Shown one piece after another: positions 289 through 30,808 of a stretch of 39,415 nucleotides of DNA (position 1 is its first letter; the number at the start of each line of letters is the position of its first letter). Location: the IMG/VR virus record IMGVR_UViG_2778261630_000006, positions 1 to 39,415 of that record; one strand, given 5' to 3'. This stretch comes from a virus. Taxonomy: Duplodnaviria; Heunggongvirae; Uroviricota; Caudoviricetes. The position numbers were made by a program, and so were the translations under genes. Under the pieces are notes generated by a model. The model did not search any database. It worked only from the letters and a program-made list of their open reading frames with translations, and was not told the DNA's origin.

Positions 289-2874
289 CTACTCTATCTC
301 TTTTGCTTTTTTAATTATCAATTCAAGCTCTGTTAAACGAGATTCAATACGTTCACACCTTCTTCGCTGGAATGCAGCCTCCAACCACAAACATTCATCT
401 GGACGCAATCCCCAACGCTCACCAGCATGTACAACCAGTTCCGTGTCACCAGTATCGTATTCTTCAAAGTATTCGTGAACGATGTCTTCTCCTTCAGGGG
501 ATTTAGCTATAAATGACACCTTGCGCTGTGCCATTACAGGTTGGTACTCATCATCCCATTTATCATGACATAGCAAGCCAAATCTTGTTCCATCTATCCC
601 CTTTGCAAGAAACGCATCTCTTACCTGCTGTGCAATTGCTCCGAAATGCCAACGAGCAGTATCCGAACCTTTAGCCTTAATATCGGACAACCACTGGTAA
701 ACGATAATATTTACGTCACCCCATGCGTCAAGAATTGCATCCTGATCCACCTCCATGATTTCTGAAAGTTGCTCTACTGTCAGTGGCTTTGTTTTCAATG
801 TCTGGTCTGAAGTATTTATTGCCCCATTAGTTGCATATACTTGCGTCCACCGTTTAGATGATGTCCCACATGATGACGTATTATCTTTATTAGCACTTAT
901 ATAGCCATTAACCTCCGCTGACTGACCGATATACGAATATGAAGATGTTGATAAGGGAGATTTAAATATCCATTGAGCATTGGTAAAGTCATAAATACCG
1001 GTATCACCTTTTTCACTAACATGAAAAGTTACATTCCGTAACGTATTCTTTGCATCATAACGGGCGGCTTGTGTTGTTGCCCTCGAAACAGTGAATCCTT
1101 TGTCATCAAGGTTTGCCTGCTCTATGACTTCACCACCAGGCATAATTTTACCAAGGCTTAACAAACCAGAGTTAGTGACAATATCATGGGTTGAATCAAT
1201 GATAATACCAGGCTGATTTCTTGATGTTGTTTTTACATGCATGACCTGTTGTGGCATTAATGTGTAAAATGTAGTTTCTCGCCCACTATCACCATCTGGT
1301 ATGCCATTTGTATTCCCCATTACAAGGTCATACCCACCTGCAATCATACGGAAAAACATTGCTTCTGGTTCATATGTAAGATTGCTAACATCTGGCGTTC
1401 CGGTATCATTTGGATCTGCTATTTCATAGGCTCTTCCTGCACCTGCCTGTATTTGCTGCACCCCAAGATAAACACCATCAAGTGTGTACTGATGCAAATA
1501 TTTTCTGGTTGAAGAATATGCAGATCCAGCCTGACAAAAATAAATAGCAGTACCGTCACACGCAACTGTTTGCATATCCCTCACAAAATCGGCAATTTCA
1601 AATTCAAAAGTTGCTTCATTACGATAATCGTAATTGTACGCCTGCGGGTTAATAAATTTGCTGGTATCAAATACTTTTACATAATAGCGAATTTGATCTG
1701 GTGTTGATGGGCTCTCACCAGGGCCAACATAACGTTTTGCTGTAGTAATCAGCCATCGACTCATAGGGTCGGTGCATAAAACATTTACCTGATTCTCGTA
1801 ACCATCTTCCCATATGAGAAAAAACTCTGGTTCAATTTCACCACCATCAGTAGGGGTGAATCTGGTGATATACTTTGCGCGATCCTCTCCTTTAGCTGTG
1901 CCAGCTAACCCCCATATCTGTAACTGGCCTCTTGTGTTACGAAAACCAACGCGCCCTATGGTTAAACCAAGACATTGATGTCCTAATTCTCTACTACCTT
2001 TAGTCTCCCAAAGAGGAGTTAACTCTTCATTCCCAAACCAATTATAAGCAACAACTTTATTAACTTCGTCACCAGAACTAACGCTGCCACTCACATTTAC
2101 CAAGCAATAAAGAACACTGTCATAATAATCAAGAACAGCACCCTGTATGACAGTATTTTTAATTGTTGCCAGTCGCAACCCTGACTTAACATGATTAGGA
2201 GTAGAAGGTCTGAAACCTGTATACATCCCCTTTTTTATAGTTTGTATTCTTTTTTCAGTAAAATCAGCATCTGGCAGTAATCGATTCTCTGTGCGAAAAT
2301 AGCCATTTATATACTTATTTCCATCAAAAACTTGATCTGTTATATATGTATTACCCCTTAGATCAACAATCCTTCCTGTGATTTGTTTTTCTAACTCTTG
2401 AAAAGATAATGTGTCATCGGTGATGCCATCACCTTTTGCTCCCCATCCGCGAGGGTCAGCGTCATCACGCCACCGAGACATCTGCAATTCATGATATTTT
2501 TTAGCACCTTCCGGGTCTTCTAATTGTTGTCTTAATTGGTCAGGATCGTACTTAAGCACATTCGGAAAATAGAACTGCTGCGTACCATATGCATCGTAAA
2601 CAGCCATAGAATGGCCTTGCACGGTAACGAATTTGGAAATCTGTCCGTTGTATACCGGGTATCCAGCAGCATTGATAACGATTGGCTGTGGCACCTGAAC
2701 ATAAGTACCATCTTCTCGTTCCAGATATACTGGAATCTGGTTTTCTGGATTTACCGGATCTGTGTCAATCTTACCGATATAAATTTTTCCATTTGCTACG
2801 GTTTTAAAAGAGCTAGCCATTGTGAAGAGTTGCGATGGCATACCTATCACAACATTTGGGGTTATATCAGGCAT
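289..2874 (-). CDS. Tailspike: P22 gp9-type head-binding N-terminus, pectate-lyase-like beta-helix body, C-terminal chaperone-like domain
   Basis: N-terminus MPDITPNVV...[21 protein letters not shown]...VLKYDPDQ matches the P22 tailspike N-domain. [11 protein letters not shown] motif downstream. C-terminal HFGAIAQQ segment. Start set at the second in-frame ATG (2874), which has an AGGA ribosome-binding site; the ORF extends in frame to 2967. Confidence 0.8.
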
Positions 2875-3216
2875 ATTAGTCATCCTGTTTGAAGATTTAG
2901 ATATTGAAGAAAACGGAATGACTGCAGACAAAGATGCAATTGTTTTGAAAAATAACCTTCTATTCATTTAAAAACCATGTAACATGAACAAAACGATTAT
3001 TTTACAATACTCAAGAATCTTGATCAACAGGCATATTATTTATGCGCTTAATGCGTCACTTACAAAAATAAAAACAAGTAATACCTTTATTCCTATCGTC
3101 CATGATTTTTATTTTCAAACATTATTAAATAACAATTCCCATTTATAATATCTGTCATTTAATTTGCTCCAGATACAAGGAATCTCCGCAGCATGGCTAC
3201 GGTGAATTTTGGGCAT

Positions 3217-3239
3217 AAAAAAACCCAGCCGAAGCTGGG
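3217..3239 (-). terminator. Rho-independent terminator downstream of ant
   Basis: Plus-strand cccagc-cgaa-gctggg preceded by a run of seven A (a T-run on the minus-strand transcript). Confidence 0.6.
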
Positions 3240-3258
3240 TCGTTGCGTTGGTTATCTG

Positions 3259-4137
3259 TCAGTAGTTATGTACTGAAGGAGGTAATTCTTTATTCTTAAG
3301 TCTCATCCATGCGGAAAGATTCGTTGGTCCGTCTGGCTCATTGATATCAACATCTCGTGTGTGATTGATTAAAACGTCTCTCGCCATTCCGATAACATAC
3401 GAGAATTCATGACCGTAGTCGTAGCATCTGCCGGAATAGTTCGATTGAATTTGTTTTAATGCCGGATACAATTCGCGGAATAATGCCTGTGAACGGTTGG
3501 CATAATCCCATAGCCATACAAGGCTGTTTGCTTCTTTTGCAGAAAGCTCGTTGGTTTTCTTATCTTGTTTGCCAATGAACTCACCTTCAAGCACTACCCT
3601 GTGGATGTACTCTACGGCCAGCGGGATTTGTTCAATTGAAAGTTCATCAATGCTGTCAATACCAAAACGCTGATGAACCATATTGTATGCATCGTCATAG
3701 CGAAGTCCTTTCTTTCCTACCAGCATGTTTACTGCATCGCGTAGCGGTGTTCTTTCCTCAACAGTGGTTTTCTTGCCTTTCACATACTTGCCATGTTTGC
3801 GAATTGAAGGCAGAACTTCTGCTGTTACCCACTTGCGGAATTTGTGCGGGACTGAACCTTTATTGACGGCATCGCGGCAGCGCAGAACCAATGTATACAT
3901 ACCTGACTCGCTCACAATGCTTAGATTCTGCTCACCACCAAGGGTGTAACTTAAAGTTACTCCCTTTTCATCGTCATCAAGTGCAGTAAGCGCCTTGCGT
4001 GAGTTAGTCAAAGCTAAAGCATCACAAACATCTTTAGCTACAAACCACGGCTCGCCGCACTTGTTAATTACGCGGATTTCACTGTCGCCAAATTTGAAGA
4101 TGGTGAAATCGTTTTGTGCCTTTGCTATACTTTTCAT
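3259..4137 (-). CDS. ant: Antirepressor Ant
   Basis: Position after arc as in P22 immI; recognisable antirepressor sequence. Start at internal ATG 4135-4137 with AGGAAAT ribosome-binding site. Confidence 0.85.
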
Positions 4138-4205
4138 GTCAATATTTCCTAAGACGATTTGTTGATACCGAAGCCCTGACTGTTCCCGCAGTTGGGGCTT
4201 CAACT
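4138..4205 (+). ncRNA. sar: Candidate sar-like antisense RNA across the arc-ant intergenic region
   Basis: Extended -10 (TGcTATACT, 4123-4131) on the plus strand just inside ant; 13-bp hairpin with UUCC loop at 4170-4201 immediately after the arc stop. Ends not determined. Confidence 0.35.
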
Positions 4206-6024: not shown

Positions 6025-7866
6025 CTACTGCCGGGTCGCTTCGTTAGCTAAGAGCGGGCGCACGGCAGTAGCCGCCTGATTTAGCGCTCTTTCATAGGCT
6101 GGTGTTCCTGCTTTGGTGTTTGCCAGACGTAAGAGCGCATTCCTTGCTGCTTTGGACTCATACAAACGCATCATTGCACCAAAACCAGCCTCAAGCCCCA
6201 TTGATACGCCAAGAGTCGCGGTTGCGCCAATCGTCCTTATCCTGTTGGCTTGCGATTGCCCCGTCTGAGTTACTACATTTGCGGTGTCTGACCTTGCTGT
6301 TTGCTGTAGAACTTCATGAAGAGCATCAAGCTCTTTCATATGCTTTCCAGAAAAAATAGTGTTGTAAATTTCACCACCTGACTGAGATTTCAGCTTATTA
6401 ACTTCAGTGATGAACTTGGCTGGAGAGTCACCGGCCTTTTCCGCTATTTTGCTGACGTAAGCTGCACGCATAGCATCTTTACCCTTATCATCCAATGCGC
6501 TCCAGATTCGTTTCACGTCAGATGGTTTTCTGCTTAATACAACGGTATTTATAAGTTCAGGGCTGGCTTCACTACTTGCCTTATTGAGCTTGTTAGCAAT
6601 GTTTTTATTAAGCACCTTATTATAAACGTTTGCATAATCGGAATTTGCTTTAAGGTATTTTGCTGCGTCTGATGCACCGAGGTTTTTAGCAACTGCGTTA
6701 CGAAGATCTTTTGACATTGCATTCTCTACCATATTGGTAGCTGCTTTTGCCTGGTTGGGGAAGACCATAGCATCTCCCTGAACATTAGATCGAAATGCTG
6801 TTCTGTGCTGACGCAAGAGATCAAACGTAACCTCCAAATCAGTTGCAGGGTTTGCTAATTCTTCACGTAGGTTACGTAAGGATGTAAGCAGGCTTTGATT
6901 GGCAGACGTCCCAAGCCGTTCCTGTCTTGCGATCGCTGTATTCAGAGCATTCATGGTATTTGTGGTATCAACTGCGGCATTACCCATTTTATTGGTGACG
7001 TCATTGATAACAGCGCCAGCGGCATCCTTCCGACCCCTTAACGTGGTGGTCAGAGATTTCACCACATCATCCGGGTTGTACTCACCAAAACGGTCAAAAT
7101 AATTACTTACCAACTTACTACGCGTTGCATATTGCTCCGCTCGCTTTGAGCCTGTCCCGAGCAAAGCCCCCTCGGCATCCTGAGTAAGGCCGCGAGTGAA
7201 AGCATTTTTCGGCGGGATAACATCAGATGTCATTGGTGTCACGCCCATCGATTCTGAGGTGGCAATTTTTTTCGCTACTTCTGGCGCGATATCGCCTTTT
7301 ATAGCCGTTATTCCACGCCCTATTCCCTTTGCTGCTGCGGAAAGAACACCCTGAGCGGCAAGGTTAACTCCGGCGTTTATGGCTGCATTTTGCGCGAAAT
7401 CACCTTTCTGGTTTGCGGCTTCTGCCAGTGATCCAATAGCCATGTTTCCTGCCGTTCCAACTCCTGGAACTAAATACCCGCCAATTGTTTCTCCAGCTTG
7501 CGCATAAGGGTCTGTTGGTCGATCTACTGGACGATAGACATCGTCCAAAACCTTGGGGCCACCAAGCCCCTGGCTGATTGCATTAATCAGACTTGCGCCA
7601 CCCTGCAATACGTCAAATGGTATGTTTACCAGACCACGACCAGCCTGTTCTGCAATTTGCCCTGCACTTTGACCACCAGTGAGCCAATCGCCAGCTTGTT
7701 GCATCAATGATGGTTCTTCACGTGCTGGTTCATTATTGACCTGATTAACTGTTTGTTGCTGAACAGCCTGACCAGCAAAATACTCATCAATGGCGGTGCC
7801 AATATCTTCCGTGCTCGTACCATCAGGGAAGGTAAATGTCTTACCGTTTGCAGTTACTTTCATCAT
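6025..7866 (-). CDS. gp16: Ejection (internal virion) protein, P22 gp16-like
   Basis: 613 aa at the gp16 position of the P22 late gene order. Confidence 0.8.
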
Positions 7867-9947: not shown

Positions 9948-10403
9948 CTATCTCCTGTGATTCAGGAAGTCGATTAGTTCTTCGCGTGTGGCGCTGTAAA
10001 ACGTCACGTCATCCACGCCTTTGAAGTATTTCTTGATGGTTCCTACACGATTAAGGCCAATCATTGCGCAGTACATCTGCCCGTGGCGGAATTTGCGTGC
10101 AGCGAACGATGTGACACACTGAACAGTGGTGTTAGTCAGAATGTATCGCCAGAACGCCAGCCCGATTTCCTTGCTGAATCCACGAACCTCTGGCAGGTAC
10201 ATGGCGTGGCAATCGAATGTCAGCGGCTGAATCTCCTGATAGTAAACAATGCCGCCAAACTGACCGTGCACGTTCACCTCAAAGTAACGGCAATCAGGTT
10301 TGTAGTCGTATCCATCACCGTTGTTGCTCCCGGCGATGATGTCAGGGTGATTTCCTACTGCTTCGATCAGGTCGATGTTTCGCGTTGGTTTGAATGTAAT
10401 CAT
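9948..10403 (-). CDS. gp14: Tail accessory protein, P22 gp14-like
   Basis: Assigned by position between gp26 and gp7. Confidence 0.65.
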   Translation of the reverse strand: MITFKPTRNIDLIEAVGNHPDIIAGSNNGDGYDYKPDCRYFEVNVHGQFGGIVYYQEIQPLTFDCHAMYLPEVRGFSKEIGLAFWRYILTNTTVQCVTSFAARKFRHGQMYCAMIGLNRVGTIKKYFKGVDDVTFYSATREELIDFLNHRR

Positions 10404-11104
10404 CAGTCAATCAGCCCATGTAATCTAAGTGCCGTTTCAAGCGCCAGAATACGCTGCCGCGCCTGCTGCAAACCTGTAGCGAGAGCGGCGACTTCGGATT
10501 GCGTGTACGTAGTGCCGACAGTGTATGACTGGTTAGCGTTGAATGAGCCAAGAAGAGGTGTACCTGTGGCTGAAGTCCATCCGGTATTTCTTGCTCCAAC
10601 AACCTGAATTCCATCAACTGAATATGATGTTTTTACATCCAGCGGTGACGCAAGAGACTGCGATTCTGTTACGGTTTTCGATACGTAATCACTCTTAATG
10701 CCAGAGACATCGTTTTCTACGTCATCCAGTCTTTGGTCAACAGTGACCAGATGCCCCTGAATATCGATAACCTCATCCAGCAAGTAATCAACATCGCTAC
10801 GCAGTACGACTATCTTCCCTTCGGCGGTTGTTAACCTGACCTCAAGGAGATTTATCGCTTTTGTGTTTGCGGTGATTCTTGCATCGTGGTCAGCCAGTTC
10901 GACATCCTGTTCATCGTTTTTTACTTGGGCATCATAAGCGCCCTGACCAGCCTGATTTGCCTTTCCAGCAATTGCACCGACATCAGCCCCCTGATTAATG
11001 ACATACAGCAGGTAAGACTGGCTGAAGATATTGCGTGGAAGGATTGATGTATCGAGCCGCGTCGCCTGAACAATAACCGGTGTGTTGAGATTCGAATCAG
11101 CCAT
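10403..11104 (-). CDS. gp26: Tail needle, P22 gp26-like
   Basis: 233 aa; conserved N-terminus [25 protein letters not shown] and C-terminus ALRLHGLID. Confidence 0.9.
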
Positions 11105-12522
11105 TACTCAATCCTTATCTGAGCGCCAGACAGAGTGACAGGTGACTTCGTGATAATGCGCAATTTGAAGCCGACATTTTTCCTGATGCGCCCGACTCGC
11201 TTCCACAAAACGCGTTTGTCGTAAACGAACGGTTCATTCTGCTCAATCATCTGCTCACGACCGTAATTGATGCCGTCAGTGGTTGCAGAGAGGAACAGGC
11301 GGTCAGCGTACTGAGCGACACCCGTCGATGATTCAACTTCCAGATCGAAGCATCTGCCGTTATCCGCTTTGAACAACGGAGTAAACAACAGGTGTTCCTG
11401 TTGCTTGTCGTACTGGCTGCTGATATCGAACTGCAATTTGCCGATAACCGATTCCAGCTTATCTCCGCACGTTATCTGATTGCCTTCGTAAATGAAGTCG
11501 ATAGCGCGGTACACATCGTCATACAGGCCTGTTTTCAGCACACACCATTGCGGACCATTGGCGCTTGAAGATGCGTCGTACACGAGAACATGGCGCGGAA
11601 GGTGGATAATCAGCAACTCATGCGCATCAAACCGCAACGATTCCATCACGCCATCAGCCAGTTCATCAGCGGTATAGGAACGGAGGATTTTCTCAATGCT
11701 CGCGCTGGCGATTGGTGATACCTGACCGGAGCCGATGATGTATACAGACGGCGCACCTGTTGCCGGATTGCTGATGAACGCATAAGAATCAGCGAATGGC
11801 GTTTTGCAGTAAGTCCCGGCAATACCTTTCTGCACCATCAATGATGGCTGTGCGACATACAAAGCGGCACCAACGGTGGTTGCCCCCGTCAGGGAGAAAT
11901 ATTCAATCGTCGATGAACCAAAGCAGACGATGAAGTCTCGCCATGTTCCGATGCCGATGATGCCGTCAGGCTGAGACTCAGCACGATATTGTGCGCTGTA
12001 ACGGTCAGGATGAGATTCGTCTTCAAGGTCAGTGATAAACCATGAATCAGTACCGTCTTTTGACCACGCATAACGCCCACGTAAGCGCGTAATGTCACGA
12101 ACCGAACCTAACTCATACTGCGTGAATCCACTATCTGTAGGCCAGTTTGAGACGGTTTTAACCGTGCCATCATAACGATACTCTACCAGTTGCCCGTTAA
12201 CGCCTACCGCCTGTGATGTTCGACCATGCGCCATTGATACGCGACCACTTCCGGCAACATCACCGACCTCACTTTCGCCCTTATACAGTTTGCCACCACA
12301 CACGCGATAAACAGCATTCTGCGCCATGTTGTACTCGACGCCTCGCGATACGCCGTTCACATCAGAACGTTTGGCAATGCCCGGGAATGAGCGAAGATAT
12401 CCGCTGCTGTTCAGGATTTCTTTGGGTGTAGCCAACATATTCACTGGCAGATAGTCGATATAGTCGGCGTTTCGGAAGTCTTTGCCGACACCTTTCATAA
12501 GCGGAAGTTGCTGAATCGGCAT
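11104..12522 (-). CDS. gp10: Tail accessory protein, P22 gp10-like
   Basis: 472 aa; translation closely matches P22 gp10 as recalled. Confidence 0.9.
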
Positions 12523-13023
12523 TTATTCGCTCCCGTTATCGCAAGGTTCCTTTCGGTGGAAGTAATTCCAACCATTCCACTTCGCCAACTGGTTACCGCT
12601 ACCAACAGGCATACGGTTTGGATAACCGGACTTACATTTAGCGGCTTTTGCTCTGTCCATTGCAGACAGTTTGACGAGTCGCTCTTTCCCGTATCTGGCA
12701 GTGGTTATAAGTTTTGCTGACGCTTCCAGCGCATAATCCGGAGCAATGCGGCAGGCAAGGTTGAAAATGACAGCATTGATAGCGTTATTTGATAAACCGT
12801 GCTCATCTCCCGGATTTGGAGCGACATCTGCATCAGCGAAAATGTAGCCAACATTGATACCTGGTGACGCATCACCGCCAAGCCATTCCGCCATCATCAT
12901 TTCAAGGTCGTTGACACCATCTTCCATGGACTGAGGTTCGACATCGGTTAACGTGGCATTTGATGCCACACCGAGCTTACGTAATGCCGCAAGAACTAAA
13001 TCACCCTTCGTTGTCAGGTTCAT
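12523..13023 (-). CDS. gp4: Tail accessory protein, P22 gp4-like
   Basis: [29 protein letters not shown] matches gp4. Start placed at the internal Met matching the P22 N-terminus; the ORF extends to 13092. Confidence 0.8.
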
Positions 13024-13231
13024 CTGCTGCCGCCTTAGGTTTTCGACCAGGCTTTTTACGCTGTTTTTCTTCTGGCTCTGGCTCTGCAACATCCTTCAGA
13101 AGGTCATCCGGATGTGCAAACCAACCAGCATCCAGATATTCCTGAAGCTCTTCGGCTTTCACGATTTCAAAGTCGTAGCCAACGCCTTTCCACTTCTTCA
13201 TGTCGCCATGACGAAAGATCATGTGTGTCAT
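13001..13231 (-). CDS. Small hypothetical protein between coat and gp4
   Basis: GGAG ribosome-binding site then ATG at 13229-13231, just after the post-coat terminator. Acidic and lysine-rich C-terminus. Confidence 0.5.
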
Positions 13232-13245
13232 GCTTGTCTCCAGAT

Positions 13246-13267
13246 AAAAAAGGGAGCCGAAGCTCCC
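13246..13267 (-). terminator. Rho-independent terminator immediately after the coat gene
   Basis: GGGAGC-TTCG-GCTCCC hairpin followed by a T-run on the minus-strand transcript. Confidence 0.7.
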
Positions 13268-13275
13268 TCTGGTTA

Positions 13276-14571
13276 TCACGCGGTCTGGTTAGGCAGACCA
13301 ACACCAATTGCCTCTGGTCGTACAGCACATGCTGAATACCACACAGCAATACGGCACTTACCAGACAGAGTGTTGATATCACCCTGCGTTGCGAAGATGC
13401 CGTTAACACCAATACCAGGAATGCTGAAGGAAGACGTTTTCATACCAGCAAACAGTTCATGGGTTACCGGGATCGGCTGAGACAGCAGGCGGATTGAGTC
13501 ATCAGCCCAGAACACGTTAGCGGTGGTTGTTGCCACGTTCAGAACGTTCACCGGAGTGTTATCAGCAAGAGAGGTGTTTACATTAGCGTAAGCCTTCTCT
13601 TCTTTTGTCAGTGACGCGTCATCCAGTGCAATCGGCTTCGGCGTGATTTCGATGTGAGTACTATCGATCACACGGGTGATTGAGAAAGTCGCATCATCAG
13701 TCAGCACGTTCTTCGCCATCTGAGACAGGAATTTCACACCAGTGAAGCTGATTTTGTCGCCGCGCTTAAATCCGGCGGTGGAGGATACGGTCACCGTTGC
13801 AACACGATTGTCGACGTTCTCTTTGTTACCATCGGTATCAAGGGTGTATGCCTGCGGCTTAAACTTCTGCGCACCAGAAACAGTTACACCAGTAGCGGTT
13901 GATTTGGTAACTGCCGGAAGTTTCGGTGAGCGAAGAATTTCATCAAAGCCAGCAATCTGACGCTGAATAGTACCGTTGCGATACGCTTCTTCAGGAACTC
14001 GCCCGAAGATGTCGCCATCTACCAAGTTGCGGCCTGCTTTGCGGTAATCGTCAGGGTTCAGGAAGTAACTGATGCCCATGTCGCGGTTGAGTTCGCGGGA
14101 GAACATCAGGCGCTCTGCATCAGACACAAAATCCCAGCCAGACAGGCCTGTAGATGGACCAATTGCGCGGGTATCGTGAACAACAAGCGAACCCATTTCA
14201 GTTGCCTGTTTGGCAATCGCTGACTCAATGTTATTCGCCAGTTTTTTGGCGGATGCCTGGATGCGGCGACGGTAAGAACGCTCATCACGCAGGTCATCTG
14301 CACGAAGCTCGAAGAAATCGTTATCCGGATCGCCCATGTTGCATTTCACGGAGAGTTCCAGAATCCCTGTTGCGTTGCCAGTTAAATCCCAGCCAGTCTG
14401 GGTTGGCGCTTCCTGCTCAACAGGCATCCACACGGTATTGCTTGAACGCTGCATGGATTTTGCCGGAGGGGTGTATTTTGTCACTTTGGACGCCATTGGC
14501 GTCAGGTTCTGGACGGTTTCGATGATTTCATCCAGAGCATACGTGACCAGTTGACCTTCATTTAATGCCAT
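13276..14571 (-). CDS. gp5: Major coat protein, P22 gp5-like
   Basis: 431 aa; near colinear with P22 coat protein as recalled. Confidence 0.95.
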
Positions 14572-22575: not shown

Positions 22576-22604
22576 CAAAAAGCCCCGAGCTATTAACTCA
22601 GGGC
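22576..22604 (-). terminator. Late-operon terminator tR' (Q antitermination target)
   Basis: GCCCUGAG-loop-CUCGGGGC hairpin followed by UUUUU on the minus-strand transcript, about 30 bp downstream of the putative pR' -10. Confidence 0.65.
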
Positions 22605-22640
22605 TTTATTTAACGAGTGCATTTATCCATCGTTGAGTCA

Positions 22641-22669
22641 AATTTACCCAACTTTATTCAAAAAGTCAA
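22641..22669 (-). promoter_or_regulatory. Late promoter pR' with Q-binding region
   Basis: Minus-strand TTGACT, 17-bp spacer, TAAATT, immediately downstream of Q, as in lambda. Confidence 0.55.
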
Positions 22670-22711: not shown

Positions 22712-23335
22712 CTAACGTGTGACCGCATTCAAAATGTTGTCTGCGATTGACTCTTCTTTGTGGCATTGCACCACCAGAGCGTCATACAGCGGCTTAACAG
22801 TGCGTGACCAGGTGGGTTGGGTAAGGTTTGGGATTAGCATCGTTACAGCGCGATATGCGGCGCTTGCTGGCATTCTTGAATAGCCGACACCTTTGCATCT
22901 TCCGCACTCTTTCTCAACAACTCTCCCCCACTGCTCCGTTTTGGCTATATCAACAGCACGGCCTGTACCGTGGCAATCTCTGCATCTTGCACCCGGCGTC
23001 GCGGCACTACGGCAATAATCCGCATAAGCGAATGTTGCGAGAACTTGCAGTACCTTTGCCTTAGTATTTCCTTCGAGCTTTGCCACACCACGGTATTTCC
23101 CCGATACCTTGTGTGCAAATTGCATCAGATAGTTGATAGCCTTTTGTTTGTCGTTCTGGCTGAGTTCATGCTTACCACAGAATGCAGCCATTCCGAATCC
23201 GGCTTGTGATTGCGCCATCCCCATAGCAGCCATCACATCAGTACCGGAAAGAGAGTCAGAAGCCGTGGCCCGTGGTGAGTCACTCATCATCGGGCTTTTT
23301 GGCGAATGAAATTTGGCTACGCTTTCGAGTCTCAT
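22712..23335 (-). CDS. Q: Late antiterminator Q
   Basis: 207 aa; translation essentially matches lambda Q as recalled. Confidence 0.95.
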   Translation of the reverse strand: MRLESVAKFHSPKSPMMSDSPRATASDSLSGTDVMAAMGMAQSQAGFGMAAFCGKHELSQNDKQKAINYLMQFAHKVSGKYRGVAKLEGNTKAKVLQVLATFAYADYCRSAATPGARCRDCHGTGRAVDIAKTEQWGRVVEKECGRCKGVGYSRMPASAAYRAVTMLIPNLTQPTWSRTVKPLYDALVVQCHKEESIADNILNAVTR

Positions 23336-25814: not shown

Positions 25815-26251
25815 GCAGCCCGATCTCCCCATCGCGCTTTCCACTCCAGAGCCAGTCGCGCTTCGTCTGACCACTTAACGCCACGCTCTGTACCGAATGC
25901 CTGTATAAGCTCTAATAGCTCCGCAAATTCGCTTACACGCATTCTGCTGGTTGACTGGCCTATTACCACAAAGCCATTCCCGGCAAGGTTAGGAACAACG
26001 TCCTGCTGCTTTAATGCTGCTGTAAAAACGCACTTCCAGCTTTCTGCATCCAGCCAGCGACCATGCCATTCAACCTGACGAGAGACGTCACCAAGGCAAG
26101 CCCAAAGCTTTCGATTCTGGTCTAAGCTGCGGTTGCGTTCCTGAATGGTTACTACGATTGGTTTGGTTGGGTCTGGAAGAATTTGCTGTACCGCGTGAAT
26201 AGCGTTTTGCTGATGTGCTGGAGATCGAATTTCAAAGGTTAGTTTTTTCAT
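25811..26251 (-). CDS. ninB: NinB (recombination mediator)
   Basis: MKKLTFEIRSPAHQQNAIHAVQQILPDPTKPIVVTIQERNRSLDQNRKLW matches lambda NinB. Confidence 0.9.
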   Translation of the reverse strand: MKKLTFEIRSPAHQQNAIHAVQQILPDPTKPIVVTIQERNRSLDQNRKLWACLGDVSRQVEWHGRWLDAESWKCVFTAALKQQDVVPNLAGNGFVVIGQSTSRMRVSEFAELLELIQAFGTERGVKWSDEARLALEWKARWGDRAA

Positions 26252-26269: not shown

Positions 26270-26299
26270 ATAAAAAGGCCTGCGATTACCAGCAGGCCT
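26270..26299 (-). terminator. Rho-independent terminator between replication genes and nin region
   Basis: AGGCCTGC-loop-GCAGGCCT 8-bp stem followed by UUUUUAUUU on the minus strand. Confidence 0.65.
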
Positions 26300-30778: not shown

Positions 30779-30808
30779 AACCCGACCTTAGCGTCGGGTT
30801 TTCTTTTT
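30779..30808 (+). terminator. Rho-independent terminator after cI
   Basis: AACCCGAC-CTTAGC-GTCGGGTT hairpin followed by TTCTTTTT. Confidence 0.7.

Follow-up and report, generated by a model that had tools for sequence, protein, structure and literature searches.

Comparative sequence evidence indicates that the hairpin following the major coat protein gene of this virus is a real and strongly conserved element and not a product of chance. It would be the local copy of an intrinsic-terminator-type element that ends the procapsid gene module (terminase, portal, scaffold and coat) of P22-like phages, in which such a hairpin is already known and annotated. The window, by which we mean the whole stretch of 39,415 nucleotides that was analyzed (IMG/VR record IMGVR_UViG_2778261630_000006), is a P22-like (Lederbergvirus) E. 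coli phage or prophage. Its nearest phage records are the Lederbergvirus/P22-like coliphages CurroJimenez_Bas106, APC_JM3.2, IME10, Louie and Dewey (94-98% identity), and prophages with the same stretch occur in 217 out of 5426 complete E. coli genomes (~4%). Among the functions weighed below, we favor a leaky terminator that also stabilizes the 3' end of the head-module mRNA and so raises coat-module over downstream mRNA, and give this reading about an even chance of being correct.

Position and anatomy of the post-coat hairpin

All genes around the hairpin are encoded on the minus strand (Table 1). An earlier reading made from the sequence only had reported the hairpin elements at 13232..13276, and all of them are present; however, they belong to the minus strand, and those positions amount to the whole coat-to-ORF spacer in plus-strand numbering. 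Its description of a perfect GGGAGC-TTCG-GCTCCC repeat followed by a T-run was accurate, with the stem beginning at the ninth base past the coat stop (8 nt between). Pairing of the flanking AGA with UUU lengthens the core stem to 9 bp in the pattern scan and to 8 bp in the thermodynamic fold. Predicted folding energies were -10.8 kcal/mol for the core, -14.4 kcal/mol for the 8-bp form and -16.8 kcal/mol for the form that includes an outer helix, with z-scores of -3.1 to -4.1, and none of 200 shuffled sequences folded equally well. This outer helix is predicted to take in part of the coat stop codons and to pair with UUAUC just 5' of the next Shine-Dalgarno sequence.

Table 1. Features of the late strand around the post-coat hairpin and of the late leader region, in window coordinates.
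Feature	Position	Strand	Evidence or remark
Q-type late antiterminator gene	23335..22712	-	PF03589, E 1.3e-57
Late promoter-like site	22669..22641	-	TTGACT...TAAATT
Leader terminator tR', 13 bp, 5' of holin gene	22607..22579	-	-19.1 kcal/mol
Major coat protein gene (P22 gp5 homologue, 431 aa)	14571..13276	-	PF11651, E 3.8e-165; phrog head protein
Coat stop to small-ORF start, minus-strand read		-	CAG ACC GCG TGA TAA CC AGA GGGAGC TTCG GCTCCC TTTTTT ATCT GGAGA CAAGC ATG ACA CAC ATG
Coat tandem in-frame stops	TGA 13278..13276, TAA 13275..13273	-	sequence
Predicted outer helix enclosing the hairpin, GAUAA (13277..13273) with UUAUC (13247..13243)	13277..13243	-	fold, -16.8 kcal/mol, z -4.1
Extended stem-loop, AGA/UUU pairing added	13270..13249	-	AGAGGGAGC-UUCG-GCUCCCUUU
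Core hairpin, 6 bp with 5 G-C pairs, C(UUCG)G tetraloop	13267..13252	-	GGGAGC-UUCG-GCUCCC
Core 5' arm GGGAGC	13267..13262	-	
Core loop UUCG	13261..13258	-	
Core 3' arm GCUCCC	13257..13252	-	
U6 tract adjoining 3' side of core stem	13251..13246	-	sequence; UUUUUUAUCU through 13242
Shine-Dalgarno GGAGA	13241..13237	-	GGAG 6 nt 5' of small-ORF ATG
Small ORF, 76 aa (ATG 13231..13229)	13231..13001	-	phrog_1175, E 1.3e-37 over residues 1-74
(GAGCCA)2 repeat encoding EPEP	13083..13072	-	copy number variable among relatives
gp4 head-completion/tail accessory factor, 166 aa	13023..12523	-	PF11650, E 1.5e-58; phrog_637
gp10	12522..11104	-	
gp26	11104..10403	-	

The tract UUUUUUAUCU starts at the first base past the core stem and contains at least 5 T in 7-8 nt, the threshold of the scan. 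A G+C stem-loop, a U-tract and an orientation downstream of a gene, the marks of an intrinsic terminator, are all found here, and the arrangement is unidirectional. A plus-strand hairpin was considered and rejected: it folds (-12.2 kcal/mol) but is followed by UCUGGUUA, with no T-tract. A plus-strand ORF at 12953..13480 was likewise rejected, being antisense to three well-supported genes. Rfam covariance models gave no match at gathering score at the hairpin; the best local match (isrP, E 1.8, 15.9 bits against a threshold of 45) is noise, and matches with E up to 10 were noise only.

Short hairpins arise by chance in general, and a loose terminator scan of the window returned 26 sites against 19.1 expected, with no overall enrichment and with the post-coat hairpin ranked second. 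In contrast, the window has 8 matches to a strict pattern (no mismatch in a stem of 6 bp or more, at least 5 G-C pairs, a loop of 3-8, and at least 5 T in 7), whereas 200 dinucleotide shuffles averaged 0.19 ± 0.4, and the post-coat hairpin is one of only two strict sites on the late-operon strand. A similar structure also stands at the same position, with compensatory changes, in the 43 lineages described below. We therefore give almost no credence to a functionless chance inverted repeat, a reading that the comparative data in practice refute.

The other strict site on the late-operon strand (3240..3223) likewise has a UUCG tetraloop, in ACCCAGC-UUCG-GCUGGGU with U7 behind it (-14.1 kcal/mol), and lies between an antirepressor-like gene (4203..3259) and the tailspike gene. 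On the plus strand, Rfam matched sar RNA, which is the immI-region antisense RNA of P22, at 4139..4205 (RF00262, 73.4 bits, E 1e-13); the match overlaps the beginning of the antirepressor-like gene. The tailspike (289..2967, minus strand) has the head-binding domain of P22 along with an endosialidase N-terminal extension and a chaperone domain, Peptidase_S74, a set which suggests that it degrades polysialic-acid (K1-type) capsule. Two further strict hairpins, at 26276..26299 and 30779..30800 in the phage early region, score as terminators on both strands and are thus bidirectional.

Recurrence of the element in P22-like phages

Elements at this position have been annotated in several genome records. 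The HK620 record (GenBank AF335538) carries a terminator, 'tGP5', at 25827..25853, described as 'consensus termination sequence following major capsid transcript'; that of P22 (GenBank AF527608) has an 'RNA stem-loop' at 6102..6119, followed by orf69; and the GenBank records of L, g341c and HF4s have a 'terminator' past gene 5. The HK620 element resembles that of the window in lying directly past the coat stop and before a small ORF (hkbT) that overlaps gene 4, and in its order of G+C stem, 4-nt loop, T-tract and Shine-Dalgarno sequence. It differs in its stem (GGGGC, as opposed to GGGAGC in the window) and loop (UUAC, as opposed to UUCG), and the HK620 coat is of a different sequence type. 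The elements of P22, L, g341c and HF4s are positional orthologues, with an identical order of coat, hairpin, T-tract, Shine-Dalgarno sequence, orf69/orf186 and gene 4, although P22 has AGGGGC-UGCG-GCCCCU with an interrupted tract (UUUCUUUAU) and phage L has a long (186-aa) allele of the downstream gene. Partial termination, and the stopping of spurious transcription in the absence of gp23/gp24 antitermination, were both suggested in the genome paper of phage L (PMC8022706), and the interpretation of the window hairpin as a partial terminator is the first of these two published hypotheses. No transcript mapping for the post-coat hairpin or its orthologues in P22-family late operons was found in the literature searched.

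Among close relatives (80 IMG/VR loci with coat proteins 99% identical) the stem was invariant in all 80, and what varied was the loop (TTCT, TTTG), the AGA beside the stem and the T-run, which differs in length (T5-T7, TTTTC, GTTTTT). More diverse relatives were located through gp4. A G+C hairpin with a T-tract was found past the coat stop in P22, L, g341c, HK620, HF4s, phiSG1, APSE-1, Kapi1 and sortkaff, and also in Proteus, Shewanella, Kosakonia, Pseudomonas and Vibrio phages. The sole exception among these gp4-found relatives was SE1Spa (DQ003260, 619..657), which is without the 5' arm (CTAACAGCTTCGGCCCCTTTC). Either a viable phage has lost the terminator naturally or the sequence is in error; in the former case the hairpin may be dispensable. 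A scan of prophages, with one genome per species, yielded 51 loci, 45 of them with a large upstream ORF. Such a hairpin was present within 110 nt past the stop of this ORF in 39 of the 45, whereas the remainder of these loci had a background of 0.02 per 113 nt. Among the misses, the wrong ORF had been chosen, the coat gene had decayed (in endosymbionts) or, in one case, the T-tract beside the hairpin was poor.

The geometry of the element is also conserved. In 43 distinct lineages the median distance from the coat stop to the G-C core was 7 nt (range 2-22; 8 nt in the window), and a Shine-Dalgarno-like motif followed 7-14 nt past the stem in 40. The 9 nt past the G-C core contained on average 7.0 T, with at least 5 T in 41 of the 43 lineages, and the first two bases past the stem were T in at least 90% of sequences. 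In a hairpin-anchored alignment of 42 sequences, 91% of cells were paired compared with 34-70% in slid controls, a count that anchoring itself biases towards structure. Changes on both sides were seen in six of the seven pairs (for example G-C to A-U and C-G to U-A), and the inner five pairs were 100% paired. The independent recurrence in position is the stronger argument for the hairpin, outweighing the pairing counts. The window hairpin begins within about 25 nt of a PF11651 coat stop codon. With a Shine-Dalgarno sequence and a gene-6/orf69-family ORF overlapping the gp4 start after it, and with compensatory changes among relatives, it fits the P22-like group that includes tGP5 and the P22 stem-loop.

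The near-universal retention of the T-tract beside the stem argues for selection on termination and not merely on a stable hairpin; that the stability of the hairpin matters too is argued by how strongly a C(UUCG)G cap is preferred. A UUCG loop with a C-G closing pair was found in 29 of the 43 lineages, with GNRA loops in three more, which suggests selection for hairpin stability in itself. This preference could also be explained by an element concerned with RNA stability or processing only, in which the hairpin, with no termination, blocks 3' exonucleases after downstream endonucleolytic cleavage and lengthens the life of the coat mRNA. Two lineages (L128 and L120) have kept the hairpin despite a degenerate T-tract, the T-tract could instead be a U-rich translation enhancer of the next gene, and the Q protein and ribosome proximity considered below both disfavor termination. 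However, an exonuclease barrier has no need of a T-tract, and the tract abuts the stem in nearly all lineages. We judge a role in RNA stability only to be unlikely.

The small ORF and gp4

The small ORF with its own ribosome-binding site, proposed in the same sequence-only reading, is real: it is preceded by the Shine-Dalgarno sequence GGAGA, matches phrog_1175 and is a homologue of P22 orf69. Bas106 and APC_JM3.2 have this 76-aa ORF annotated at identical coordinates, and its family includes P22 orf69, epsilon34 gene 6 and HK620 hkbT. A GTG-initiated version of 92 aa (13279..13001), given by one source, was rejected, as it would begin inside the coat stop/hairpin and both the relatives and the position of the Shine-Dalgarno sequence favor the 76-aa ATG form. 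In the protein, a conserved N-terminal domain of ~50 aa is joined by an (EP)n linker to a basic tail, KKPGRKPKA. The N-terminal domain carries the motif M-x-hY-x-G ... V-x-x-x-E-x-x-x-hL-x-x-GW-x-x-P and aligns with P22 orf69, L orf186 and ORFs of Kapi1, sortkaff and Proteus, Shewanella, Vibrio, Pseudomonas and Kosakonia phages; P22 orf69 has both this domain and the basic GRKPKA tail in common with the window ORF.

We found 339 homologues of the 76-aa protein, all labelled hypothetical and near-identical save for the length of (EP)n. Searches of PDB sequences, Pfam and NCBIfam with the 76-aa form returned nothing useful. Long alleles have a central WDGH domain (PF25311), which was detected with E 1.3e-39 in close relatives with a 197-aa allele. 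The 76-aa protein has no such domain, and the window therefore has the short form, as does P22, whose orf69 is the short form of this small-protein family (PMC2629481). The linker is encoded by (GAGCCA)n, which gives (EP)n, or (ES)n in some relatives, and differs in copy number; homologues range from 74 to 98 aa in 2-aa steps, and the APC_JM3.2 record annotates this sequence as a repeat_region.

The gp4 ATG is situated within the small ORF, 23 nt from its 3' end, and the overlap of the basic C-terminal tail with the gp4 start, which is present in all forms, suggests translational coupling. Two records annotate this region differently. In APSE-1 (NC_000935) an unannotated plus-strand ORF of the same small-protein family follows the coat hairpin at ~1017..1208, where RefSeq has the opposite-strand P25 and P26. 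The record of Louie (1697..1834, 1909..2496) misses an intact small ORF, with a short ORF called across the hairpin and gp4 over-extended. Both discrepancies look like annotation problems.

A mosaic junction was observed at the end of the T-run in 16 of the 80 close relatives (L011, L015, L028 and 13 others). Near-identity extends from coat through the hairpin and T-run as far as ~13245; it is lost there and returns at 13087, at the (EP) repeat (minus strand 13245..13087 of the window), the 5' two-thirds of the small ORF being replaced by the 197-aa WDGH-domain allele. These breaks, together with the near-same hairpin of 14-16 nt past four very different coat types, could indicate that GGG(A)GC-TTCG-GC(T)CCC, common to diverged head modules, is primarily a module-boundary or recombination linker, a cassette junction with a secondary effect on expression. 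However, homologous exchange would have very little to work with in 14-18 bp, and since recombinants broken at gene boundaries are the only ones to survive, breaks there are expected in any case. The likeness of the hairpins can reflect convergence towards the smallest terminator of very high stability. The covariation of the stem points instead to selection on RNA structure, and we regard a linker role as very unlikely.

Read-through and possible function in the late operon

The genes beyond the small ORF (gp4, gp10 and gp26) are head-completion or tail-accessory genes, in line with their earlier description as tail-accessory. The window has the layout of a Q-antiterminated lambdoid late operon, with a Q gene, a promoter-like site and tR', followed by holin, Rz, terminase, portal, scaffold and coat. 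The region 22669..22579 (minus strand) resembles lambda PR'/6S RNA/tR'. Both tR' and the coat hairpin are intrinsic terminators of the same late operon, encountered by the same polymerases. They differ in that tR' is longer and stronger (13 bp, -19.1 compared with -14.4 kcal/mol) and acts as an on/off switch in an untranslated leader, whereas the coat hairpin stands between cistrons, at 5-8 nt from a stop codon that is heavily translated. A downstream promoter, with which the terminator could be complete, was considered and rejected, as the scan of the minus strand from 13250 to 10403 saw no promoter-like site. Since gp4, gp10 and gp26 are essential, termination must be incomplete.

The claim that the hairpin is a partial terminator is partly supported, namely by the terminator anatomy, by compensatory conservation together with the T-tract and by the leakiness that the essential downstream genes require. 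That the hairpin 'sets the stoichiometry' between coat and downstream genes was too strong a statement, because Q antitermination and ribosome proximity oppose strong termination in the lytic cycle. Furthermore, terminase and portal, which are 5' of coat, are also low-copy products, and translation must therefore do much of the tuning. Published ribosome profiling of lambda reportedly shows that differences in late protein yield are set mainly at translation, which counts against the leaky-terminator reading.

The phage T7 genome has a partial terminator, T-phi, past the major capsid gene 10, and its efficiency has been measured. Inefficient T7 terminators balance expression (PMC9163698). Like T-phi, the window hairpin follows the most abundantly needed structural gene and precedes essential genes that rely on read-through, the leakiness in our case being what we infer. 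T7 differs in having its own single-subunit RNA polymerase and no Q-type antitermination, and the two elements have no sequence relationship.

Two published observations bear on the strength of termination at the hairpin. RNA polymerase loaded with Q, which forms a nozzle on the RNA exit channel, is termination-deficient (10.1101/2022.03.25.485794), and a translating ribosome at a stop-to-hairpin spacing of 5-8 nt cut the efficiency of the tR2 terminator from ~90% to <10% (PMC4824070). Given Q antitermination and a hairpin 5-8 nt from the coat stop, lytic-cycle termination is probably weak and could be close to zero. Taken with the need for read-through, these two factors lead us to expect weak termination where polymerases are Q-modified and ribosome-coupled, and strong termination where they are unmodified or the transcript is untranslated.

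Such a division would also suit an insulator against non-antiterminated polymerases, essentially transparent to Q-modified late transcription, which stops spurious or prophage-state transcripts from the head genes entering the ejection, immunity and tailspike genes. This is one of the two possibilities proposed for phage L (PMC8022706). It is consistent with the Q gene and tR' leader of the window and with the termination deficiency of Q-loaded polymerase, and four coding-strand transcription start sites have been mapped inside the capsid gene cluster of the related prophage BTP1 (PMC7067206). Untranslated spurious transcripts would, in addition, escape ribosome repression of the terminator. 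However, an insulator leaves unexplained why the element follows coat in every lineage and not other junctions, and only one other strict-pattern terminator exists in the 22 kb of late strand. We consider this function rather unlikely.

The narrow range of distances between coat stop and hairpin in the 43 lineages led us to consider another arrangement, in which the terminator is gated by translation. The lead coat ribosome would block folding of the hairpin, and read-through into the downstream genes, whose products are low-copy proteins, would occur only while coat translation keeps pace, with termination otherwise. If this were true, transcription of the tail-accessory and ejection genes would be coupled to successful coat translation, either on top of Q or independently of it. 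We hold such gating to be distinctly unlikely.

Under the favored reading of a leaky terminator that also protects mRNA, the late mRNA transcribed from the minus strand would form a C(UUCG)G-capped G+C stem followed by U6, 5-8 nt past the coat stop. Most polymerases, being Q-modified and ribosome-coupled, would read through it, and a minority, those not Q-modified or with a lagging lead ribosome, would terminate. On transcripts ended or cut nearby, the very stable hairpin would shield the upstream coat RNA from 3'-to-5' exonucleases, and the net effect would be an excess of coat-module mRNA over downstream mRNA. On read-through transcripts, the U-rich spacer and GGAGA would start translation of the gene-6-family small ORF, whose 3' end, overlapping the gp4 start, probably hands ribosomes on to gp4.

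The significance of the hairpin beyond good annotation is small. It marks the 3' boundary of the procapsid gene module in a prophage type present in ~4% of complete E. coli genomes, and is an unusually uniform, family-wide case of an intra-operon terminator within a Q-antiterminated operon. Being short, conserved and easily mutated, it would offer a convenient test case for how the amounts of phage structural proteins are governed, and for the respective shares of leaky terminators, ribosome occlusion and 3' hairpin protection.
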